Part shown: piece by piece, positions 6,531 through 27,717 of the stretch
Numbering within the stretch: position 1 is the first letter of the stretch
Layout: the number at the start of each line of letters is the position of its first letter
Origin: an uncultured Actinomycetes bacterium
GTDB lineage: Bacteria; Actinomycetota; Acidimicrobiia; IMCC26256; JACDBD01
Direction of reading: 5' to 3'
DNA: 64,000 bases
Assembly: GCA_963747195.1 (NCBI GenBank)
Contig: CAVVDV010000002.1
Coordinates: 351,750 to 415,749 of the forward strand
Translations under genes and position numbers: made by a program
The notes under the pieces: model-generated
Databases searched by the model: none
What the model saw: only the letters and a program-made list of their open reading frames with translations
Told to the model about the DNA's origin: nothing

Positions 6531-7129
6531 TCCACCCGATCGAGACGGAGAGCTACCGGATCCTCGAGACCCGCGTCGACCTCTCGCACCTCGATCCCGG
6601 GCCACGCGCCGTCGTCGAGCGGGTGATCCACGCCAGCGCCGATCCCGAGTACGCCGCGTCGACGGTCGTCGACGTCGCCGCCGTCGACGCCGGCGTGCAC
6701 GCACTCCGTGCCGGTGCGCCGGTGCTCTGCGACGTCGAGATGGTGCGCTCCGGCATCCGCGGCGTCCCGACGGAATGCCTTCTCGCCGACAACTTGTACG
6801 CAGACCCTGACGGGCCGACGCGCGCCGCGCTCGGGATGCGCTCCGCGGCCGCCCGGCATCCAACCGGGGCCGTCGTAGTGGTCGGCTGCGCACCGACCGC
6901 CCTCGAAGAAGCGCTGGACCTCGTCGCCTGCGGCGTCTTCGCGCCTGCACTCGTCATCGGGCTGCCGGTCGGGTTCGTCGGCGCGGCGGAATCGAAGGCG
7001 CGCCTGCGCGCGAGCGGATTGCCCGCCATCTCGAACATCGGCGAGAAGGGCGGCAGCGCCGTCGCGGCAGCGGCCGTCAACGCACTCGTTCGCCTCGCCG
7101 CCCCGCCACCGGAAGGGAACGCACCATGA
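6527..7129 (+). CDS. cobH: Precorrin-8X methylmutase CobH/CbiC
   Basis: HPIETESYRIL, RVIHASAD, GCAPTAL, GLPVGFVGAAESK, KGGSAVAAAAVNAL. Confidence 0.93.
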   Translation: MIHPIETESYRILETRVDLSHLDPGPRAVVERVIHASADPEYAASTVVDVAAVDAGVHALRAGAPVLCDVEMVRSGIRGVPTECLLADNLYADPDGPTRAALGMRSAAARHPTGAVVVVGCAPTALEEALDLVACGVFAPALVIGLPVGFVGAAESKARLRASGLPAISNIGEKGGSAVAAAAVNALVRLAAPPPEGNAP

Positions 7130-14485: not shown

Positions 14486-16064
14486 CTAGAGCCGCGGCGG
14501 CAGCACGGCCTCGATGAGGTGCGGGCCGGGCTCGGCGAGCGCCCGCTCGAGCGCGGTGACGAGCTCCTCGGCGGTCGTCGGCCCGCGCGGCCGGCACGCC
14601 CATGCCCCTGCGCCAGCGCGACGAAGTCGAGGTCGGGGCGCGTGAGGTCGAGCATGTCGCGCGCCTTGCGGGCCGGGCGCCTCGGCGCCGACCCGGTTCA
14701 GCTCCATGTTGAGGATCGCGTAGGAGCGGTTGTTGAAGATCACGGTGGTGACGTCGAGGCCCTCGCGGGCCTGCGTCCACAGCGACTGCAGCGTGTACAT
14801 CGCGCTGCCGTCGGCCTCGAGGCACGACGACCTTGCGGTCGGGGCACGCGACCGCGGCGCCGGTCGCCGACGGGCAGCCCTGGCCGATCGCGCCGCCGGT
14901 GAGGGTCAGCCAGTCGTGGCGGCGGCGCGCCCGCGGTCGCGCCGGCGACGAACAGAGCCCGACGTGTTGCGCCTCGTCGGACGACGATCGCGCCCTCGGG
15001 CAGCAGCGCGCCGACGGCGTCGGCGACCGTCTCGGCGGTGAGCGCGCCGGTCGGCCGGTCGGGCCGCGACGCCGGCTGCGAGCGCGCGGCGTCGGCCGCG
15101 ACGCCGACCGCGTCGGCCAGCGCGCGCGAGCGCGCCGACGGCGTCGTCGGCGCCGGCCGGCGAGCACGTGCACCTCGCAGCCCGTCGGGCACGAGGTCGC
15201 TCGGCTTGTCCGGGATAGGCGAAGAACGACACCGGCGCCTTGGCGTCGACGAGCACGAGGTGGCGCAGCCCGTCGAGCTGCGCCGGCGAACTCGGCGAGG
15301 TAGCCGAGGCGCTCGACGGCGGGACGCCCGGCGCCGCGCTCGAGGCGGGCCGGGAACGTCTCGGCCAGCAGCTTGGCGCCGGTGGCGTCGGCGATCGCGG
15401 CTGGCGGCGACGAGGCCGCGCCTCGCGCAGCGCGCGTGCCGCCGAGAGCAGCGCGGCCGGCTCGCCGCGAGCGCAGCACCTTGGCGACGTCGCGTCGACC
15501 GCGTCGTCGGCCGACCGGCGCGCGGCGCGGCGACGGGCCGCGGCGCGGCCGGCCCGGCGCCGTCGAGCCACGAGACGTCGGCGGGCAGGATCAGCGTGGC
15601 GACCTGGCCGGGCGGGCCGTGCGCCGCGGCGACCGCCTCGGCGGCGTCGGCGGCCGACGTCGTCGGGCGTCGCCGACGAGCGGATCCAGCCCGACACGTT
15701 GCGCGCCGACGCGTCTCGATGTCGGACTCGAGCGGCGCGTCGTACTGCTTGTGGTAGGTGGCGTGGTCGCCGACGATGTTGACGATCGGCGTGTGGGCCC
15801 GGCGGGCGTTGTGCAGGTTGGCGAGGCCGTTGCCGAGGCCCGGGGCCGAGGTGCAGCAGCGTCGCCGCCGGGCGGTCGGCCATGCGGCCGTAGCCGTCGG
15901 CGGCGCCGGTGGCCACGCCTTCGAACAGCGCCGAGCACGCCGCGCATCTCGGGGACGTCGTCGAGCGCGGCGACGAAGTGCATCTCCGAGGTGCCCGGGT
16001 TCGTGAAGCAGACGTCGACGCCGGCGTCGACGAGCGTGCGGATGAGGGCCTGGGCGCCGTTCAT
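14486..16064 (-). CDS. Acetolactate synthase large subunit-like TPP enzyme (heavily frameshifted)
   Basis: [69 protein letters not shown]. Confidence 0.8.
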
Positions 16065-17480
16065 GGTCGTGCCTCCGGTCGGCGTCGAGTCGAAGATGGT
16101 GCCGGGGTTGAGGATGCCGTGCGGGTCGAACGCGGCCTTGATGCGGCGCATGAGGTCGAGCTTCGCCGGGTCCTCGAGCTCGAGGAAGTACCGCTGCTTC
16201 TCGGTGCCGATGCCGTGCTCGCCCGAGATGGCGCCGCCGAGCGCCATGCCCGCCGCGAACAGCTCGTGCAGCACGCTCGTAGCGCACCTCGGGGTCGGGC
16301 TGGAACACCGACAGGTGCACGTTGCCGTCGCCGGCGTGGCCGCAGCCCGGCGATCCAGCGAGCCGGTCGTCTGCCGCGAGCTCGCGCGACCGCGGCCATG
16401 AACTCGGGGATCGGCGGCGCGGGGCACGACGATGTCGACGATGTCGTCGGCGCCGTTGGCCTTGGCGACCCAGAACGCCTTCTCGCGGGCGTCGATGAGC
16501 TGCGTCGCCGGCGCCGCGGCGGCAGCACGTAGACGTCGAGCGCGCCGAGCTCGGCGAGCAGCTCGGCCGAGCGCCTGCGACGTCCTCGTCGAGCCGGTCG
16601 TCGTGCGTGTTCTCGAGCACCACGACGAGGTAGGCGAGCGCGCGTGTCCTTGATCTCGTGCGGGGATGCCGAGGTCGAGGCCGACGTGCGCGCGTGATCG
16701 CCGCCATCGTGAGCATGTCGATGTACTCGAGGATCAGCGGGCCGACGCCGCTCGCGACGATCGCGGGCACCGCGCGCGGTCACCGTCGTCGAGCGTGGCG
16801 AACGGCGCGAGCACGGTGGCCTGGTGCGCGGGCCGCGGGTAGAGCTTGAGCGTCGCCTCGGTGACGAGCGCGAGCGTGCCCTCGGAGCCGATGATGAGCT
16901 GGGTGAGGTCGTAGCCGGTCGTGGCCTTCACGAACTTGCCGCCGGTGCGGATCACCTCGCCGGTCGGCGAGCACGGCTTCGAGGCCGAGCACCTGGTGGC
17001 GGGTGACGCCGTACTTCACCGCGCGCATGCCGCCGGCGTTGGTGGCGACGTTGCCGCCGAGGCTGGCGCTGTACTCGCCCGGGAACACCGGGTAGACGAG
17101 GCCGTGCGCGGCGGTCGCCTCGTCGAGCTGGTCGAGGGTGACGCCGGGCTGCACGACGGCGACGTGGTTCTCGGTGTCGATCTCGAGGATCTCGGTTCAT
17201 GCGCTCGAACGACACGACGATGCCGCCGGCGGCGGGGATGCACGCGCCCGACAGCCCGGTGCCCGCTGCCGCGGGCGGTGACCGGGATGCCCGTGCTCGT
17301 TCGCGAGCCGCAGCACCGCGGCGACCTCGGCGGTGGTCGCCGGGCGCACCACGAACGCCGGCGTGTCGCGGCGTGGCGGTGAGCGCCTCGTCGTGGGCGT
17401 AGTCGTCGCTGATCGTCGTCGCCGGTCAGGACGTGCTCGGGCGACACCACGTCGCCGAGCAGCGCGGCGATGTCGGCCAC
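16061..17480 (-). CDS. FAD-linked oxidase, GlcD/D-lactate dehydrogenase type (heavily frameshifted; 3' end approximate)
   Basis: [54 protein letters not shown]. Confidence 0.8.
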
Positions 17481-18103: not shown

Positions 18104-18180
<77 letters not shown>

Positions 18181-18289: not shown

Positions 18290-19363
18290 CTAGTGGTGTT
18301 CGTGCTCGCGCCCATCGGCGTGGTGTGCCAGGACTGTGTGCGGGTCTTGCCCAGGACTCGGTGCGGGGCTGGGGTGCACGATTACCGTCTGGACTCGCGG
18401 CACTTGGTGGAGCAACTGGTGCTCGACTTGGTGGGCGACGTCATGGGCGGCGGCCAGTGACCTGTCGGCGGCGACAGTGATGTCCGCCTCGACGTGGAGG
18501 CGATGACCGACCCATCGCAGCCGCAATTGATTGAGTCCGATGACGCCGGGGGTCGATTCCACTACGTGTGTCACGTCTCGGTAGAGCTCGGGATCGACGG
18601 CATCGAGCAGTCGACGAAAGACCAGGCGGATAGCTCTGCGCAGCACGCCCGCGATGGCGATCATGATCAGCAATCCTGCTATCGGGTCGGCGGCCTGCCA
18701 CCCGAGCGCTACGCCGATGACGCCGGCGACGACTGCGAGTGAGGTCAGCCCGTCGGTGCGCGCGTGCAGCCCGTCGGCGACCAAGGCGGCAGACCCGATG
18801 CGACGTCCAGTGCGGATGCGCAGCTGGGCCGCGATCTCGTTGCCGACGAAGCCGATGACACCAGCGGCCGCCACGATGATCAGGTGGTCCACTGTGCGGG
18901 GGTTGATGAGTCGGTCGATTGCTTCGTAGCCGGCGGCGAAGGCCGAGACGGCGATCACCAACACGACGACGACTCCGGCGAGGTCTTCGACGCGGCCGTA
19001 TCCGTAGGTAAAGCGTTCGTTGGGTGCTCGTCTCCCGAGCCGAAAGGCGATCCACAGCGGCACGGCGGTCAGCGCATCGGCGAAGTTGTGCACCGTGTCG
19101 CCAAGCAGGGCGATCGAGCCCGAGAACACGACCACGACGGCTTGGGCGATCGCAGTCACGCCAAGGACCACCAGGGAGCCGGCCAGGGCTCGGGTGCCTT
19201 CTACGGATCCTTCGAGGGTGCTGTCGACCTGCTGGGCCGGGTCGTGGGTGTGTCCCTGAAGGAGGTCGCGAAGCCGGGACTTCAGGCCGTGACCATGGCC
19301 ATGCGGATTGTCGTGGTGATGCTCACTGGCGTGATCGTGATCGTGGTGCTGCGACGTGTTCAT
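18290..19363 (-). CDS. Cation diffusion facilitator transporter with His-rich N-terminus
   Basis: SIALLGDTVHNFAD, TYGYGRVEDL, SAALVADGLHARTD, C-terminal dimerisation domain. Confidence 0.92.
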   Translation of the reverse strand: MNTSQHHDHDHASEHHHDNPHGHGHGLKSRLRDLLQGHTHDPAQQVDSTLEGSVEGTRALAGSLVVLGVTAIAQAVVVVFSGSIALLGDTVHNFADALTAVPLWIAFRLGRRAPNERFTYGYGRVEDLAGVVVVLVIAVSAFAAGYEAIDRLINPRTVDHLIIVAAAGVIGFVGNEIAAQLRIRTGRRIGSAALVADGLHARTDGLTSLAVVAGVIGVALGWQAADPIAGLLIMIAIAGVLRRAIRLVFRRLLDAVDPELYRDVTHVVESTPGVIGLNQLRLRWVGHRLHVEADITVAADRSLAAAHDVAHQVEHQLLHQVPRVQTVIVHPSPAPSPGQDPHTVLAHHADGREHEHH

Positions 19364-19462: not shown

Positions 19463-19822
19463 TCAGATCGTGACGACATTGACCACCAAGGCGATACCGG
19501 TCAGGAGCGCTCGAAGCTTGGCGAACCGATTGGGATCGGCCGGAGGGTGCACGCTCGCGTAGATCCCGAGCAGGATGTACGTGACGGCGGGTGCCAGAAC
19601 GTCGTTGGCGCTGAAATTCGGGACGCCGTCGTTGTTGAGCTGTGGCATGTTGGCGCACAGTCGATAACCGAACGTGGCGAGGGCGGCGACCGCGCAGACT
19701 GCCCCGATGGTCACGGCGGATCGGGGCCGCAGCAGCCAATAGGCGGCGGGCACGGAGAGGACGCCGATGATGACGGCGGTTGTGCCGATGTGGGCCGTTG
19801 AGAACGTGGTTGTCGCCAGCAC
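19463..19822 (-). CDS. Small multi-pass membrane protein of unknown function
   Basis: 119 aa, about 4 hydrophobic segments, AGGAG RBS. Confidence 0.7.
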   Translation of the reverse strand: MLATTTFSTAHIGTTAVIIGVLSVPAAYWLLRPRSAVTIGAVCAVAALATFGYRLCANMPQLNNDGVPNFSANDVLAPAVTYILLGIYASVHPPADPNRFAKLRALLTGIALVVNVVTI

Positions 19823-20037
19823 GGTGGGTCTCCTGTTCGTCTTGAGCGACAGCTAGGACGCTTTGGGCGGTAGCAGCCGCTTGGTTCATCACATGTTGCC
19901 GGCGTGGCCGCGCGAGTATCGGCCGGGCTCGGGCCATACGGCGAGACCGTGGGCTTAGCGCCGCTCAGACCACGATCCACCTCGATCGTGATCGAGACTC
20001 GTCGTGACGGCGCGGGTCTGCAGCGTCTCCGATTGGC

Positions 20038-20238
20038 TCAGGCTGCGACGAATAGGCGTCCGGTTTCGACGACAACGCCGACCAGGAAGACGACCGAGAG
20101 CGCGTAACACGTCGCTTTACTCAGGTAAGAGCCGACGGTGCCGAGTTCTGGGCGCAGGTCGATCCTGACCATCACCTGCATGAAAAACAGCATCAGCAGG
20201 CACAGACTGGCGGCGTACAGCGACGAGGCGAATGCCAT
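20038..20238 (-). CDS. Small 2-TM hypothetical protein (66 aa)
   Basis: AAGGAGG RBS overlapping the upstream stop; MAFASSLYAASLCLLMLFF... with two hydrophobic stretches. Confidence 0.55.
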   Translation of the reverse strand: MAFASSLYAASLCLLMLFFMQVMVRIDLRPELGTVGSYLSKATCYALSVVFLVGVVVETGRLFVAA

Positions 20239-20249
20239 GGCAACCTCCT

Positions 20250-20633
20250 TTAGAGGACGAAAATGTCGACGATGAGCGTGGCGATACCAGCGGTGGCGGC
20301 CATGCCGATCACGCGACCAGCGGGTTGCGCGTGGTCGACGATCAGCCCGAGCAAGAGCGCGACCGCGACGAAGACGAGCACGCCACTGCCGGCGTCCTGC
20401 CAGCTGACGAGCACGCCGGGGGCGTCGACGTCGAAACCGTTGGCGTGGGTGGCGTGCAGCGTGAAGTTCCAGGCCAGCCATCCGCTCGCTGTTCCGACGG
20501 CGGCCGCGATGAGGCGAGGGGGCGTTCGGGTCGCCGGTCGCACCGCAAAGACCGCCGTGACCACGGCGGTGGCAAGCGCCGCGGTCCAGAGGATCTCACT
20601 CGGATCGAACACGGTCATCGCAAGGAAGTGCAC
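20250..20633 (-). CDS. Small multi-pass membrane protein of unknown function
   Basis: 127 aa, about 4 hydrophobic segments, GAGGAG RBS. Confidence 0.72.
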   Translation of the reverse strand: MHFLAMTVFDPSEILWTAALATAVVTAVFAVRPATRTPPRLIAAAVGTASGWLAWNFTLHATHANGFDVDAPGVLVSWQDAGSGVLVFVAVALLLGLIVDHAQPAGRVIGMAATAGIATLIVDIFVL

Positions 20634-20645
20634 TCGTGCGCTCCT

Positions 20646-21390
20646 CTAGGAAGAGTCGTTGTCGCTGTGGGGGGTGAGCGGACGGCGCGGCTGTTGGCGG
20701 TTCCGTGTTCCGCCCGCGCCGTGTGGCGCCTTCGACGCCGATCGGGAGTGTGTGGGTGGGTGGGAGGTCGAGGGCGTCGAAGTCGACGTCGGGGAAGCGG
20801 CGGTCGAAGCCGACGGCTTTGTGCGTGAGGGAGAGGGAGAGCGCGACGGCGACGTCGGCGCGGAGGATGCCGAGCTTGCGGGCGGCGACGGCGATGCGGG
20901 TTTGGCAGCGGCAGTCGATGGAGTGGATGGCGGCGGTCTTGGCGGCGGAGCCGACGGCGATGCCGAGGTCGATGTCGCGCAGGTTGCACTGGGGCCCGGC
21001 GAACTCGAGCTCGGCGGAGTCGTCTTGGAGTTGTTTGGTGGCGTGGAGGAATTCGGCGCAGGTGGCGTAGCCGCAGGCGCCGCAGTCGTAGTTGGGCGGG
21101 TACCAGTCGGCGAGACCGACGAACAGCGCGGCGTCGATGGCTTCGGCGACGTCGGCGTCGCGGAACCAGATGGTCTCGCGACGTTCTTTGCCCCGGGCGC
21201 GCATCCAGCCGGCGAGGCGGGCGAGGGTGTCGTGGTCGTCGACGATGACGGTCTCGATGAACAGGTGCTTGCCCTGTAGGAACAGCTGCCCGCCGGACTT
21301 GGGCGCGGTGACGGCGGCTGCGGCCATGAGCTTGGCCACCTGTCGCACAGTGTCGGCGCGTAGGTCGTCGTAGCTGAGGTGCTCGCTCAT
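20646..21390 (-). CDS. DUF2148-like Fe-S (ferredoxin-domain) protein (C-terminal frameshift likely; ORF track ends 20596)
   Basis: MAAAAVTAPKSGG, DCGACGYATC, GPQC...DLGIAVGSAAKTA, IDCR. Confidence 0.78.
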
Positions 21391-21830
21391 GCCGGCTGGG
21401 TGGCGACTTGCTTGGCACACCAGGCGTAGAGCGCGTCGTAGACGAACTCGGCGCGCTCGAGCAGCCGGTGGTCGTCGGCCTCGACGTCGAGGCCGCCGAG
21501 GCCGATCGCCAGGAGTCCCGGTCCGGCGGGGTCGGTGTGCAGCTCGGATTCGATGTCGGCGGCGTGCACGATGCGCGCCAGCCGCACGAGCGCCGGGTCG
21601 TCACCGAGCCCGAAGTCGTCGATGAGCACCTCGAAGCTGCAGCGGTTGCCGCGGTGGGTGAACTCGGCGCCGTCGGCGTCGAACGACCGGGCGCCCTCCT
21701 TACGCGCGACGTCCAGGACTTGGTCGACCGGGACGTAGAGGATCTCGGCGTCGTGGTCGATGAAGCGGCGGATCAGCCAGGGACACGCGATGCGGTCGGT
21801 CTTGGGACGGGCGCGGGTCACCCATTTCAT
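21387..21830 (-). CDS. Chromate resistance ChrB C-terminal-domain protein (copy 2)
   Basis: KWVTRARPKTDRIACPWLIRRFID, FTHRGNRCSFE, LARIVHAAD, YDALYAW. Confidence 0.88.
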   Translation of the reverse strand: MKWVTRARPKTDRIACPWLIRRFIDHDAEILYVPVDQVLDVARKEGARSFDADGAEFTHRGNRCSFEVLIDDFGLGDDPALVRLARIVHAADIESELHTDPAGPGLLAIGLGGLDVEADDHRLLERAEFVYDALYAWCAKQVATQPA

Positions 21831-22178
21831 GTCAGGTCCTCCTCGGTGGGGTTCATCGGGTCGTGGTCGGCGAGGCCGGCGAGGTTCAGGTAGCCGCCGG
21901 TGACGTCGTAACGGGTGATCGGCCGGTACTCGACGGCTTGGTGCATCTCGGAGGCCGTGAGCTGCGTCGCGTTCGGGCGTCGCGATCCAGGCGTCGAAGA
22001 CCTCGTGGCTCGGCCAGATCGTGATCACGACGGTGTCGCCGTCGCCGGATGTCGGCTCGAGCACGAGCTCGGCGAGGATGCCGTGGTCCTCGCGAACGGC
22101 GCGGCCGTCACGGATCCAGGCGAGATAGTCGTCGCGTTTCTCGGCCGGTACGGCGACGGTGCGCAGGCACACGATCAT
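21827..22178 (-). CDS. Antibiotic biosynthesis monooxygenase (ABM)-like protein (frameshift ~21960)
   Basis: Small alpha/beta protein with VVITIWPSHEVFDAW; ATGA overlaps on both sides. Confidence 0.65.
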
Positions 22179-23456
22179 GGGTTGGCCTCCTCGACGCCGG
22201 TGAGTGTCGGGACTGGGGTCGTCGAGGCGCGCTCGCCGGGCTCTCGTGTGTCGTCGGGGAGCGGCACGCGCTCGGAACCAACGCCAAAGCACCAGGTCGT
22301 AGAGCGACTTGATGCCGCCGGCCAGGACGAACGGGAGACCGAACGCGATCGACTGGCTTACGCCTGCGAGCGCGGGGCCAACCGGCCTGACGACATACCG
22401 GGCCGTGTTGGTCACCGCGGCCGCTGGCGTGCGTTCCTCGGGCTCGACCATCGCCATGACGTAGGCCTGGCGCGTGGGCACGTCCATCTGCGCCAGCACG
22501 AACCGTCCGAACAGCAGCGCGATCGCAGCGGGGAGGTTGGGGGCGAGCGGGATCGCGGCCAGCAGCACGTTGGACGGCAGATGCGTGAACACCATCGTGC
22601 GCAGGAGCCCGAACCGCTCAGCCAAGCGCGGCGCGGCCAGGAACGACACTGTCTGGAGCAGACCAACCGAGAAGAACACCACTCCCAGCACGCCGATCGA
22701 CGCGTGGAACTCGACCGCGAGCCAGTAGACGATGAAGGACTGCACCACGAAGCCGCCGCCGAAGCTGTCGAGCGCGAACAGCGCGGACAGCTGCAGCACA
22801 ACCCGACGAGATCGCCCCAGCCCCACCCGTTCCCGCGCGCGTTGCGGTCGCGGTTCGACTTCCGCCCGCGATGAGAGCGTCCCCGCCACCACGGCGCCGG
22901 CGAGCGCGACAGGCACGAACAGCAGGAAGAATCGTTGATCGATCGGCGCTCCCGGCCACACGCGGCGAAGCAGTTCCGGGCCGCCGGCGGCCAATGCGCC
23001 CACAGAGCCCGCGGCGGTCGCCACCGCGTTGTAGGTGCCGAAGCCGCGTGTTCGTGCCTGGCCGGTGAGCTCGGTCGCCAGCATGGACTGCTCGAGTGAG
23101 GTGAACGCGCCCGATTCGACGACCTCGGTGGACAATGCGCCGGTGAGCGCCACTGCGCACAACACCCAGACCTGATCGGAGAAGGCGAACACCACGCCCG
23201 TCACTGCCAGCGCCAGGTACAGCACGACGTAGGAACGTCGGCGGCCCCACCGGTCACCCCACCGGCCGATCGCGAGCGACGACACGACCGTCCCCGCGAC
23301 GACGGCCGCGAGCACCAGCCCGACCTGGCCCGACGAGAACCCCGCGCGCTCGAGCGTCGAGCCCAGCAGAATGGCCCCAAAGCCGTAGGCGAACGCGCGC
23401 AAGGCCTGGGCCCACAGGATCCGACGGGCGTCCGAGGAGAGTCGTGCGCGCGTCAC
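22175..23456 (-). CDS. MFS transporter (frameshift ~22265)
   Basis: LRAFAYGF, GDRWGRRR, LFALDSFGGGF, MVFTHLPSN, QMDVPTRQAY. Confidence 0.88.
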
Positions 23457-23884
23457 GCCGGGTCCTTTCCCAACAGCAGCGCCCGCCGCCGGTACTCGTA
23501 CAGACTGTCGAAGACCGGCCCGGTGATCGCGAGGACGTCGTCATCACCGCGCACCATCGTCAGGCCACGGCAGATGACGTCCAAACCGGGTGCCTCCGGA
23601 GCATCGAAACGATCATCGGCAAGATCGGCCTCGTGAACGATTCGAGCGAGGTCCCACAGCACCGGATCATCCAACGCGTATCGGTGCAGCATCGTCTCGA
23701 ACGAGCAGTCCCCACCGTGATGCGACAAGTCAGCACCCCGGATGTCGAACGGCGTCGCGGCCTCGGGAACCTCGTCGGGATCATCGACGAAGACGAACTC
23801 CGCGTCCGCATCGATGAAGCGCCGGATTAGCCACGCGCACGCCGCCCGGTCGACGTGGCAACCAGCCCTCGTCGCCCACATCAC
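23453..23884 (-). CDS. Chromate resistance ChrB C-terminal-domain protein (copy 1)
   Basis: WATRAGCHVDRAACAWLIRRFID, SHHGGDCSFET, IVHEADL, APEAPGL. Confidence 0.88.
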   Translation of the reverse strand: MMWATRAGCHVDRAACAWLIRRFIDADAEFVFVDDPDEVPEAATPFDIRGADLSHHGGDCSFETMLHRYALDDPVLWDLARIVHEADLADDRFDAPEAPGLDVICRGLTMVRGDDDVLAITGPVFDSLYEYRRRALLLGKDPA

Positions 23885-24354
23885 CGCGACGCCTCCACCT
23901 CGACCGCCAACCTCTCGACCGCGCGCTGCGCTTTCTCCCGGTCAGGAGGCGGGAAGTGATCGCGTTGGGCGATCCGATGCAGCTCGCGCCGCAATCGCGC
24001 CGCGATCCGCCGCCGGGCCGAATCCGATTCGCCCCGTGCCGCCTCTGCGACTTCGATCACGGCGCGGTATTCCTCTGACACCGCCTCGGCCATCGTGGCG
24101 GCCAGGGCGCGTTCCTGGCCGGCCGAGCCTGACCGGGCGATCCACAGCGTCGCCTCTCCGCCGGCCTCCAGGACCTCGTCGGCGATCCACTCCAGCTGCT
24201 CCTTCGTGCGCGCGTCGTTGGGCAGCGCGACGAGCCCGTCGCCGAGCTGCGCCGTTCCCAGGCGGCGCAACTTGCGCCACACCGAGATCCGCGGCGTCGA
24301 GGGTTCGCGGGGGATCCGGTAGGCGAGGAGCACCCATTCGAGTCGACCGGGCAC
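23881..24354 (-). CDS. ChrB N-terminal-domain (DNA-binding-like) protein
   Basis: WVLLAYRIPREPSTPRISVWRKLRRLG...EEY...RDHFP. Confidence 0.85.
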   Translation of the reverse strand: MPGRLEWVLLAYRIPREPSTPRISVWRKLRRLGTAQLGDGLVALPNDARTKEQLEWIADEVLEAGGEATLWIARSGSAGQERALAATMAEAVSEEYRAVIEVAEAARGESDSARRRIAARLRRELHRIAQRDHFPPPDREKAQRAVERLAVEVEASR

Positions 24355-24385: not shown

Positions 24386-24401
24386 TGCAACCACGGTTAC
24401 A
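24386..24401. promoter_or_regulatory. Inverted repeat, candidate operator in divergent promoter
   Basis: TGCAACC-AC-GGTTACA. Confidence 0.55.
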
Positions 24402-24409
24402 GATACAGT

Positions 24410-25436
24410 GTGGCCGTGCGGATCCACCACCCGGCAGCGGCGCTGGCAGCGGCCACCGTGGTCGTGATGGCTCTGTTCTTCCCTGCCAGTCCGGTCGCCG
24501 GGCGCACGCCGGGGCTGCCGCTCGAGCGTGTGCGCGACGTCCGCCTACCAGGGCGGTCGACCCGCTTCGATTACCAAAGCGTCGACGCACCGGGCCGGCG
24601 CCTCTACGTCGCCCACCTTGGCGACTCCACCCTCGACGTCATCGACGTCGACGCCCTCACGGCGGTGGCGACCGTCCCGGATATCGCCGACGTCCACGGC
24701 GTGCTCGCCGTACCGGAGATCGGACGCGTGTTCGCGTCGGCGACCGGAACCAACGAGCTCGTCACACTCGACGCATCAAGCAATCAGGTGATCGCCCGCA
24801 CACCGACCGGCAAATTTCCGGACGGCATCGCCTACGACCCACGCGACGACCTCGTGCTCGTCTCCAACAAGGACGCCGGGACCGAAACGCTCGTCGAGGG
24901 GAACTCGGGGCGCATGGTCCGCACCGTGCAGCTCGGCCGCGAGGTCGGCAACGTCGCCTACGACTCCACCAGCGGACTCGCGTACGTCGCAGTGCGCCCG
25001 CCCGACCAAGTCGTCGCTTTCGATCCCACGCACCGGCACGATCACTGACCGGATTCGACTCAAGAACTGCCGCGGAGCGCACGGCCTCTATGTGCAACCC
25101 CAGGCCCAGCACGCGTTCGTCGCTTGTGAAGACAACGCCAGAGTCGTCATGGTCGATCTCCAAAGCCACCGAGAGATAGCGGCGGCGTCCGTCGGCGACA
25201 CCCCGGACGTGCTCGCCTACGACCCCGGCCTCGGACGCCTCTACGTCGCCGCCGAGAGCGGCGTCGTGACCGCGTTCTCACCAGCCGGGCATGGGTTTCG
25301 CAAGCTCGGCCAAGCGCACCTCGCCGACAAAGCCCACTCCGTCGCCGTCGACCCCACCACCCACCTCGTGTTCTTTCCCCTGGAACGCGATCCCAACAAG
25401 CCCGGCCTCCGAGTCATGAAGCCCGTCGACACCTAG
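24410..25436 (+). CDS. Secreted YncE-like beta-propeller protein (frameshift ~25040)
   Basis: Signal peptide, RFDYQSVD..RRLYVAH, repeated blades, DVLAYDPGLGRLYVAAESG, AHSVAVDP. Confidence 0.8.
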
Positions 25437-25463: not shown

Positions 25464-26060
25464 ATGTCGACAACAACCGAGCGCAGCAGACTGCTGAGGC
25501 GGGGTCTTCGCCTCGAGTACGCCACGCTCGGCTGGAACGTCCTCGAGATCGGGTTTCTGGGCTTCGCCGCGATCATGGCCCGCTCTGTGGCACTCGCCGG
25601 GTTCGCATTGGATTCGTGCATCGAAATCTTCGCGTCGCTTGTTGTCGTGTGGCAGCTCAAGGGCACCGCGACTCGGGAGCGCGAGCAGCGAGCGGTCCGA
25701 TTGATCGGGTTCGCATTCCTCGGCCTCGCGCTGTACCTCGTCGGCCAGACCGTGGTGACGCTCGCTGCGGGCATCCGTCCGGACTCTTCCCTGCTGGGGA
25801 TCGGCTGGCTCGCGGCGACGGTGGTCGCCATGTTCAGTCTGGCGGCCGCGAAGGGGCGCACCGGGCGGGCGCTCGGGAACCTCACCCTCCAGACGGAGGC
25901 GAAGGTCACCATGATCGACGGGACGCTGGCCGCCACCATTCTGGTCGGCCTGGTGCTCAATGCCGCCCTCGGCTGGTGGTGGGCCGACCTCGCCGGAGGG
26001 TTTGTCATCATCGGGTACGGGTTACGCGAGGGCTCCGTCGCGCTCCGAGGCTCGAGCTGA
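25464..26060 (+). CDS. Short CDF-type cation transporter lacking the cytoplasmic domain
   Basis: LEYATLGWNVLE, SVALAGFALDS, LGWWWAD. Confidence 0.78.
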   Translation: MSTTTERSRLLRRGLRLEYATLGWNVLEIGFLGFAAIMARSVALAGFALDSCIEIFASLVVVWQLKGTATREREQRAVRLIGFAFLGLALYLVGQTVVTLAAGIRPDSSLLGIGWLAATVVAMFSLAAAKGRTGRALGNLTLQTEAKVTMIDGTLAATILVGLVLNAALGWWWADLAGGFVIIGYGLREGSVALRGSS

Positions 26061-26129: not shown

Positions 26130-27717
26130 GTGCCCGGTCGGGGGAGGCGCGTTCGAGTTCGGACTCGGGTGGTCGCGGCTCTGAGCGTCGTCGCGCTCAC
26201 GGCCGCCCTCGCCGCGGTGGTCGCGAGCTCCGCCGGCGCCAACCCCGCCAAACCCGCCAAGCCGGCGAGGCGGAAGGCGTCGCCGTGGGAGCCCGACCAG
26301 CCCGGAGTGCAGCACCTGCACTTCAAGTACGGCCCGGTCTCGATCCAGCCCGGGCAGAACAACATCAGCTTCAGCGATCGCGAGGTGCCGAAGCCGACCG
26401 AGGACGGCTACATCGTCGGCATCCACCCGAACCTGCGCACGAAGGACGGCAAGGTCCCCCCGGTCGACGTGATCCACCTGCACCACGGCGTGTGGCTGAA
26501 CATGTCCGCGGAGCGGGACCGCTCCCGGGGAGTGCCCAACTTCTTCGCCGCCGGCGAAGAGAAGACGATCATGAAGCTGCCGACCGGCTACGGGTATCCG
26601 TACCGGGCGTCCGACAATTGGGTCCTCAACTACATGATCCACGACCTCACGCCGGGGCCGTACCAGGTGTGGATCACGTACGACCTCGACTTCGTCCCGT
26701 CGTCGTCGCCGGCCGCCCAACAGATCACACCGGCCCGACCGATCTGGATGGACGTCCAGAACGGCAGCATCTATCCGGTGTTCGACGTGATCAAGGGCTC
26801 GGGCACCAACGGCACCTTCACGTACCCCGACCAGGCGAACAACCCGTACGCGAACGGTCGTCAGAAGAACGTGTGGACCGTCGACCGGGACAGCGTGCTG
26901 TTGGGCACCGCCGGTCACTTGCACCCCGGCGGCCTCCACGACGACCTGTACGTCGATCGACCGGGCGCGACGGGCGCGCCGGGGTCGAGCGTCGTGACAG
27001 GGCAAGCCGGATACCGCGCACCTGTTCCGCTCGGTGGCCGACTACTTCGAGCCCGCCGGCGCGGTGAGCTGGGACGTTTCGATGACCGCGACGCCGTCCG
27101 AACTGGCAGCGTGCAGGTTCACGCGGGCGACCATGTTGCGGATCAACACGACCTATGACAGCAAGCGCGCGTCCTGGTACGAGTCGATGGGCATCATGAT
27201 CGTCTGGGCGACGGACGGGACGAACGGTCGCGACCCGTTCACCACGAAGGTCGACACGAAGGGCGAGCTCACGCACGGTCACCTGCCCGAGAACAACCAC
27301 CACGGCGGGCAGAAGGTGACGCTCCCGAACCCCACGAAGTTCGCGGGGACCGACACGTCTGCAGTCGGGATCGACAACTTCCTCTACGGGGTCGGTGACG
27401 CGACGGGCAAGCACCAGATCCCCAAGGTCAAGGCCGGGCAGTCGATCACGTTCACGAACAACGACGCCACGAAGGACGCCAACGGCATCTGGCATTCGAT
27501 CACCGCGTGCCGCGCGCCGTGCAACAAGGAGACGGGCGTGGCGTACCCGCTCGCCGACGGCAGCACGCAGTTCGACTCCGGGCAGCTCGGTGCGGCCGGC
27601 CCGCCGAGCGCGGGCCGCGTCTCGTGGGACACGCCGGCGGACTTGAAGCCGGGCACGTATACCTACTTCTGCCGCATCCACCCGTTCATGCGCGGCGCCT
27701 TCCAGGTCGCGCCCTAG
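26130..27717 (+). CDS. Secreted copper type II (PHM/DBM-like) monooxygenase fused to a C-terminal cupredoxin (frameshifts ~27000-27130)
   Basis: Signal peptide; HLHHGVW, GHLHPGG, YESMGIM; C-terminal WHSIT...YFCRIHPFMRG. Confidence 0.65.

Follow-up and report, generated by a model that had tools for sequence, protein, structure and literature searches.

A ChrA-less, very probably ChrB-controlled gene cassette with a constant ChrF-DUF2148 pair in soil Actinomycetota

Among described chromate (chr) systems, three stand closest to the locus treated here, a chr-type gene cassette without chrA in a 64,000-nucleotide stretch (the window) of contig CAVVDV010000002.1, assembled from an uncultured Actinomycetes bacterium; their features are given as the available parts of the cited papers report them. 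In Arthrobacter sp. FB24, chrB-Nterm and chrB-Cterm overlap by 4 nt, the cluster also carries a second chrB-Cterm and chrK, and its genes are induced by chromate with little or no response to lead or arsenate (PMC2751784). The chr1 cluster on pMOL28 of Cupriavidus metallidurans CH34 reads chrIBACEFONPYZ, with chrF1, chrP, which encodes a major facilitator superfamily (MFS) protein, and chrZ downstream of chrA (see also PMC7060636 and PMC11647585); chrP is stated, without data, to be chromate-induced (PMC2864759). For ChrB of Ochrobactrum tritici, chromate induction is lost with the substitutions R180A, R187A and H229A, and repression with R18A/R23A (PMC3817168), while ChrF of this species holds 1.0 Mn per mol and has superoxide dismutase (SOD) activity (PMC4779226).

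We found that the cassette in the window is conserved in soil contigs and metagenome-assembled genomes (MAGs), that its constant core is ChrF plus DUF2148, and that it is very probably a ChrB regulon. A sequence-only reading of the window had proposed an undescribed sensing, transport and redox module. The conserved gene set, the missing ChrA and the redox gene DUF2148 bear this out in part; most of the components are, by homology, already known as chr genes, namely split ChrB as in FB24, ChrF, ChrP as in CH34, and ChrK/ChrZ.

Gene content, conservation and the missing chrA

The Pfam order over the six minus-strand genes is ChrB_N, ChrB_C, MFS_1, ABM, ChrB_C and DUF2148+FeS, and each of their six starts (24354, 23884, 23456, 22178, 21830 and 21390) is a genuine GTGA or ATGA stop-start junction, as the sequence-only reading had stated. 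The N-terminal half of ChrB (ChrB-N; 23881..24354; PF20229), the predicted DNA-binding part, matches FB24 ChrB-Nterm at 54% and has an arginine pair equivalent to R18/R23 of O. tritici. The C-terminal half (ChrB-C1; 23453..23884; PF09828), the predicted sensor domain, matches FB24 ChrB-Cterm at 64% and keeps the equivalents of R180, R187, H229 and H258. By Pfam and by blastp to FB24 and CH34, the locus contains a ChrB regulator with N- and C-terminal parts. These genes are followed by a ChrP-like MFS transporter (22175..23456; PF07690), an ABM-family small protein (21827..22178; PF03992), a ChrF-like protein first noted as a second ChrB-C (ChrB-C2; 21387..21830), and a DUF2148 protein (20646..21390; PF09918 + PF04060) whose end was inferred from relatives. 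On the plus strand lies a divergent ChrK/ChrZ-like YVTN beta-propeller gene with a hydrophobic N-terminus (24410..25436; TIGR02276; 44% to CH34 ChrZ, 40% to FB24 ChrK), and between it and chrB-N is a predicted ChrB operator, a 16-bp imperfect palindrome (24386..24401; the box hereafter). Both the box and the divergent gene come in addition to what the sequence-only reading contained.

As assembled, the MFS, the N-terminal part of ABM and ChrB-C2 form one 689-aa frame (23456-21387). We rejected such a fused MFS-ABM-ChrB-C protein as most likely an assembly error and took the six-gene model to be right, because independent near-identical contigs lack the extra bases and because, in the relative locus L028, MFS, ABM and ChrB-C2 are separate overlapping ORFs. 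The base at ~22270 in the MFS gene is missing in contigs from 4/4 DNA runs and 4/4 RNA-library runs, that at ~21964 in the ABM gene in 3/4 of each, and one 1642-nt contig (12 mismatches, 2 gaps) spans both sites. Further extra bases were indicated at ~25029 in the propeller gene by 8/8 runs, and at ~20720 in the DUF2148 tail by 2/4 RNA-library runs (not among the matches listed for the DNA runs), the latter extending the DUF2148 frame to 20596 as assembled. The RNA-library contigs cover parts of the cassette and were not counted as proof of transcription or of an inducer. A scan for sigma-70 promoters and terminators gave no match inside the cassette.

To describe conservation, we drew on a DUF2148 metagenome scan with 333 confirmed stretches, using the best 80 (77-98% identity) together with nine genome loci. 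All of these 89 loci (483,070 bases) were chosen by DUF2148 similarity, and most lie on short contigs. A ChrF-like gene stood directly upstream of DUF2148 in 78 of the 82 loci with at least 100 nt upstream, and 0/89 loci matched any of four ChrA queries. Twenty non-redundant loci carried both chrB-N and DUF2148; the ChrF-like gene was found in all 20, ABM in 14, MFS in 12, M1/M3 (small hydrophobic proteins, below) in 12, a ChrK-like gene in seven, a fatty-acid hydroxylase in six, a CDF gene in four and a ChrL-like gene in two. Gene-neighbourhood analysis thus returned a gene set conserved elsewhere. Cassette holders were soil runs except for one digester run, and the closest MFS matches were MAGs of Acidimicrobiia or Actinomycetes. 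The DUF2148 gene is patchy, occurring in 10/264 genomes of the order and 2/401 of the class sample, and ChrB_C was found in 17/401 class genomes and 29/401 phylum genomes. The order, genus and phylum tallies take in genomes flagged unpublished (G512, G483, G275, G909), and the sequence claims made here rest on none of these.

A genome-wide PF02417 search agreed with the sequence-only reading that the window has no chrA, placing copies only on contigs C1 and C6. The two chrA regions (C1:1754-2806 and C6:67026-67940) lie at contig ends, share 97% identity across 3.7 kb and are possibly strain duplicates. These copies, the presence of chrA in 5/8 other DUF2148-positive genomes and an assembly that is just 60% complete would suit a different explanation, in which the cassette is the accessory half of an ordinary chromate resistance whose chrA is unlinked, or is left over from a cluster from which chrA has been lost. 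However, co-regulation of chrA with the cassette in this genome was rejected, with no box upstream of either copy, and none was found at the available chrA loci, several cut by contig ends, of this genome and five other cassette genomes. The ORF before each of its own chrA copies is one that we take to be PadR-like. Moreover, chrA occurs in 13/18 genus relatives regardless of the cassette, versus 2/18 for the DUF2148 gene, one genome at 100% completeness (G015) has the cassette and no chrA, and the cassette genes are intact and conserved in relatives. We therefore regard an accessory or remnant as decidedly unlikely. Because it has no linked ChrA pump, the locus is not a canonical chrBA determinant.

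The operator-like palindrome and the ChrB-C sensor domains

The box, with the core G(T/C)AACC-N2-GGTT(A/G)C, lies 47 nt before chrB-N and is the single match in the window; elsewhere in the genome only C4:1113 matched, with no chr gene near it and 0.34 matches expected by chance. The core was present within 2.5 kb of chrB-N at 15/15 DUF2148-type, 21/21 chrA-type and 7/9 other loci, and gave 0 matches in 346,971 control bases. These locus counts are partly fitted, since the window itself supplied the pattern, which was loosened once the first matches were known; the fairer checks are the chrA-type loci, eight later genome loci and the reversed-pattern control. The FB24 cluster has four copies, before chrA6/chrL, the M1 homolog, chrB-N and chrJ, one of which is identical to the window 16-mer. 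In five loci where chrB-N/C have split off (L052, L080, L082, L092, L106), chrF-DUF2148 is immediately preceded by the box, and DUF2148 thereby falls within the ChrB regulon. We conclude that the cassette as a whole very probably constitutes a ChrB regulon. The main text of the FB24 paper, as distinct from its operon-structure supplement, names neither a promoter nor a repeat in the parts available (PMC2751784), and our literature search, which left most subscription papers and the regulon databases aside, found no description of the palindrome as a ChrB operator in Actinobacteria. The palindrome is offered as a candidate operator in the chr clusters of actinobacteria, that of FB24 among them, and gives a way to list regulon members.

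Several further genes were observed next to boxes. A fatty-acid hydroxylase/sterol desaturase gene shares an operator-like box in 6/20 cassettes (L028:2065-2901, L052:9275-10066, L065:6145-6981, L078:6218-7015 and L211, among others) and is a further likely regulon member. On FB24 plasmid 3, two small hydrophobic genes (L113:8550-8882 and 6606-6974), related to M1 and outside the eight genes of the 2009 paper, lie inside the chromate cluster beside boxes. ChrB-N itself gave a weak match to the central Cas2-like domain of PaaX (E 0.004), which may point to a DNA-binding fold other than HTH.

The two motifs HVDRAAC (ChrB-C1) and KTDRIAC (ChrB-C2) on which the sequence-only reading had based two divergent ChrB-C domains are both present. 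KTDRIAC is the ChrF motif, so that the divergence is the ordinary difference between ChrF and ChrB. In keeping with ChrF, ChrB-C2 is a stand-alone ChrB-C-type protein with a KW.TR.RPK.DRIACPWL N-terminus; it matches CH34 ChrF1 at 50% and groups with it in a quick tree (SH-aLRT 95, with a long-branch warning). In the same tree, ChrB-C1 sequences from ChrA-less loci are scattered among the chrA-linked ones, none on a long branch, at weak support. The tree leaves out metagenome loci <5 kb, pieces <370 nt or with stops and two redundant loci, and 44/93 of its inner branches are open. Lone ChrF-type genes, without ChrB-N, chrA, MFS or box, were observed in varied contexts in 14/48 sampled loci (L129, L148, L150, L153, L157, L159, L162, L165 and others), which suggests a role outside chromate clusters.

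The O. tritici numbering was transferred through CH34 ChrB1 by residue spacing, without the O. tritici sequence itself, and places R180, R187 and H229 at R6, R13 and H59 of the ChrF-like protein. R6, D12, R13, D51, H59 and D92 were invariant in 108/108 ChrB-C rows of both types, and the arginine pair matching R18/R23 was present in 47/47 ChrB-N sequences; the residues needed for chromate induction and DNA binding are thus kept. This bears on the earlier suggestion that the ligand may not be chromate, according to which the inducer would be another tetrahedral oxyanion or a Mn/redox signal of ordinary soil and chromate only its mimic. That the cassette is common in soil metagenomes (the 333 stretches above), that its loci lack chrA, that 14/48 sampled loci hold a lone ChrB-C/ChrF, and that a DHH-like site as modelled below could bind phosphate- or sulfate-like ligands are all consistent with it. 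A non-chromate ligand is nevertheless disfavoured, because the sensing residues are unchanged, the palindrome is the same as in the chromate-specific FB24 cluster, and the ChrA-less and chrA-linked ChrB-C1 interleave. We consider another ligand unlikely, and chromate the likely inducer.

To examine the sensor fold, we used a structure model of ChrB-C2 (pLDDT 96.6). Its best match was 6MTZ, an uncharacterised H. pylori protein (Z 11.5), and ranks 2-13 of 48,161 chains were DHH-type by title; the named DHH chains scored Z 7.7-4.9 with an rmsd of 3.1-4.1 Å over 109-136 residues, values within the tool's warning range. Foldseek on the same model gave no match at E 0.001, with PggH at rank 2 (E 1.1), a PDB sequence search with ChrB-C gave no significant match, and a structure-atlas search with ChrB-C2 gave no usable one. 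In the available parts of PMC4846377 and PMC4081065, the site A Mn of DHH enzymes is reported to be coordinated by Asp, Asp, His and Asp of motifs I-IV. In the model, D12, D51, H59 and D92 sit, in this order, after strand 1, after strand 3, after the next strand and after the later helix. ChrB-C is accordingly predicted to fold most like a DHH phosphoesterase domain with a one-metal Asp/Asp/His/Asp site, and we infer from the model that a single metal is bound and that two arginines take the position of the second one. Such a site would explain the single Mn of ChrF and the sensing residues of ChrB, that is, the three published loss-of-induction mutants, and it points to three new ones (D12, D51, D92). 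The relation to DHH enzymes is put forward only as a works-like claim on the model. We found no link of ChrB to DHH in a chromate context in the literature, again with most subscription papers outside the search, nor any structural model of ChrB chromate sensing in the ChrB literature examined.

Transport and redox genes and a tentative mechanism

The MFS protein is a full-length homolog of ChrP (Rmet_6196; 38% over 395 aa, E 1e-58) and, like it, is encoded in a chr cluster. We regard it as an optional accessory. R20, R217, H292, R318, R329, R353 and K383 are invariant across seven homologs, and because of these basic residues it is probably an anion carrier. Among records from cultured actinobacteria, five have chrA either after chrB-N/chrB-C or facing them, so that the MFS here occupies the slot of chrA. 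The sequence-only reading had the MFS replace ChrA, and one could accordingly see it as an alternative chromate or oxyanion exporter, with the other genes as accessories. The MFS gene comes right after chrB-C and overlaps it by 4 nt, an arrangement also seen for chrA in S. mirabilis and Miltoncostaea; its invariant basic residues suit an anion carrier, and chrP is the gene stated to be chromate-induced in CH34. Across 48 sampled actinobacterial ChrB-C loci, many of which end at contig edges, MFS occurred without nearby chrA in 12, chrA without MFS in 13, neither in 19 and both together in four. The joint occurrence of MFS and chrA in those four loci, in CH34 and in three other proteobacterial plasmids (L109, L110, L111) argues against replacement, as does the finding that 8/20 complete cassettes have neither MFS nor ChrA. 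In addition, chr genes are missing from the surroundings of 10 of the 11 closest genome homologs (77-88%), several of which have sulfatase and luciferase-like genes as neighbours. An exporter standing in for ChrA is therefore improbable in our view. Some of the closest homologs (79-88%; L005, L007, L008, L015) are neighboured by sulfatase, luciferase-like monooxygenase, amidohydrolase or Na/H antiporter genes with no chr genes among them, a possible clue to a sulfur-anion substrate.

The ABM protein of the relative L028 gave weak PDB matches to TT1380 and MhuD; against the heme-degrading ABM proteins IsdG and MhuD, just residues 20-69 align (E 3e-4 to 0.03). The three small membrane proteins that had been listed after DUF2148 exist as minus-strand ORFs starting at 20633, 20238 and 19822, and the second and third vary between strains. 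The small hydrophobic protein M1 (20250..20633) belongs to no Pfam family, matches ARTH_RS22905, an unnamed FB24 chromate-cluster gene, at 32.5% over 120 aa, and found only unnamed clusters in a structure-atlas search. M2 (20038..20238) has 62-88% matches in close relatives only and is skipped in some strains, and M3 (19463..19822) matches SMIR_RS41920, the gene right after chrA in Streptomyces mirabilis, at 51%. A strain-variable stretch of 571 bp within 19852-20424, covering the end of M1 and all of M2, is skipped by near-identical contigs in 4/8 runs; the RNA-library runs without it have 41 other letters in its place.

For the DUF2148 protein, the structure model (pLDDT 89.9) predicts a nitroreductase fold with a CxxCxxxxC...C Fe-S insert. 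All listed Foldseek and VIA rows belonged to the nitroreductase superfamily (VIA Z 10.9, rmsd ~3-5 Å over 125-150 residues), and almost every DUF2148 homolog, close or distant, retains the four cysteines, a set also found in RnfB-type Fe-S domains. Cys162 was present in 69/69 close homologs and in 0/23 more distant ones. A PDB sequence search gave nothing significant, RnfB reaching no better than E 0.019, and no description of DUF2148 was found in the literature, where most subscription papers fell outside the search. RxSxR is the N-terminal flavin (FMN)-phosphate motif of nitroreductases; as it is missing from the DUF2148 rows, FMN binding is a candidate only, and the invariant K31 and R197 might substitute for it. 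In the available part of PMC5684319, NfsA of V. harveyi is named as a nitroreductase and also as a chromate reductase. On the basis of the model, DUF2148 may be a reductase of the inducer, a role that we hold tentatively, at somewhat less than an even chance. The role is a reasoned guess; alternatively, the protein may serve in Fe-S redox chemistry or in repair when chromate causes stress. A complex prediction for a DUF2148 dimer with the ChrF-like protein scored 0.00 and counts neither way. By being drawn into the ChrB regulon, the family gains a first testable role.

These parts can be arranged into a ChrA-less chr variant that is induced by chromate and detoxifies it not through ChrA export but by reducing it and removing superoxide, a chain that, taken whole, falls only slightly short of an even chance. 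ChrB-N and ChrB-C would assemble as a repressor on 24386-24401, with the divergent chrK-like gene as well as the operon under its control. In ChrB-C, one divalent metal would be coordinated by D12, D51, H59 and D92 in the numbering of the ChrF-like protein, and an oxyanion bound between the metal and R6/R13, residues whose roles are taken from the O. tritici mutants, would release repression. In the weakest step, the Fe-S cluster of DUF2148, together with any flavin that it binds, would carry electrons to Cr(VI), which the clade-specific cysteine may hold. The adjacent ChrF, by homology a Mn protein with reported SOD activity, would then remove the superoxide arising from one-electron reduction of Cr(VI). 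The ChrP-like MFS, ABM and small membrane proteins may be optional helpers, with the MFS likely carrying an anion.

Several observations weigh against this arrangement. Just 10/20 complete cassettes reach at least 1 kb past DUF2148, and chrA is present elsewhere in this genome and in 5/8 of the other DUF2148-positive ones. Some FB24 genes are also partly induced by H2O2, up to 12.5-fold, as reported in the parts available (PMC2751784). For the sensor, the named DHH chains reach Z <=7.7 at most, profile-profile comparison with NrnA-type DHH domains gave no sequence signal (shallow profiles), the top structural match 6MTZ is not matched by the NrnA profile and not confirmed as DHH, and D12, D51, H59 and D92 match the site A ligands by order and position only, without residue-level superposition. 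For the reductase, RxSxR was found in 0/102 DUF2148 rows, and distant DUF2148 proteins occur without chr genes, for example in Parabacteroides.

In its boldest form, the proposal would be a pump-free soil Actinomycetota system consisting of a split, DHH-derived single-Mn oxyanion sensor, an Fe-S chromate reductase of nitroreductase fold and an SOD of DHH fold, which we think rather unlikely as a whole. If true, it would give DUF2148 its first function and place SOD activity on a DHH fold, not the Fe/Mn-SOD fold. Should the reductase step prove right, soil bacteria would deal with chromate more widely than chrA counts suggest, which would matter for bioremediation and biosensors.

Flanking sequence and comparison with described systems

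On the flanks, a tRNA-Met (18104-18180) lies just left of the cassette region, and GC is 64-70% to its right compared with ~72-78% before it. An integrative island at this tRNA was rejected: no duplicated tRNA 3' end was present, and no integrase was found in the 20/28 flanking ORFs scanned. CDF genes flank the cassette on both sides, a His-rich CDF transporter (18290-19363, minus strand) and a short CDF-like gene (25464-26060, plus strand), and recur beside it in relatives in either orientation. The flanks at 14740-17480 and 26130-27717 look frameshifted too, consistent with many indel errors in the assembly; they include a secreted protein whose coding sequence is divided between two frames and which weakly matches cupredoxin, and pieces that we take to be FAD-linked oxidase-like and acetolactate-synthase-like.

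Compared with FB24, as far as the available parts of PMC2751784 describe it, the locus shares the split chrB with its 4-nt overlap, the chrK propeller, the M1 homolog and the 16-bp palindrome. FB24 differs in having chrA6, SCHR, chrL and chrJ, whereas the window adds MFS, ABM and DUF2148 and has no chrA; in addition, the second C-terminal copy of FB24 is of ChrB type and broken up in tblastn, and that of the window is of ChrF type. With CH34 chr1 it shares ChrF1, the ChrP MFS, ChrZ and ChrB. There, in contrast, ChrB is fused, chrA and the SOD gene chrC are present, ABM and DUF2148 are absent, and nothing in the cluster (L112) matches the window palindrome. With TnOtChr of O. tritici it shares the arginine pair, the induction residues, which map onto both domains, and the N-terminal motif of ChrF. 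TnOtChr has another inverted repeat and chrA, and the C-terminal domain is termed rhodanese-like in the literature on it (PMC3817168, PMC4779226), whereas our model matches DHH chains best.

Beyond the chr systems, the Asp, Asp, His and Asp of ChrB-C2 agree in order and position with the ligands of Mn site A in DHH phosphoesterases (NrnA, PggH, RecJ, Cdc45). ChrB-C2 differs from these in having no DHHA domain (147 aa only), T/D/S-H-R/H for the DHH triad and K/H-x-D for DxD, and a second metal site apparently replaced by Arg/Lys/His. DUF2148 shares its predicted fold with the nitroreductase superfamily (IYD, the FbiB C-domain, NfsA/NfsB), but at ~10-17% identity, without the RxSxR segment and with an RnfB-like four-Cys insert. 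Taken together, what is new here relative to these systems is the ChrA-less loci, the constant ChrF-DUF2148 pair, the predicted nitroreductase-like fold of DUF2148 and the predicted DHH-like site of ChrB-C. As a system the cassette is less new than the sequence-only reading supposed; its candidate operator, DHH-like sensor model and DUF2148 fold make old questions about chr systems testable.

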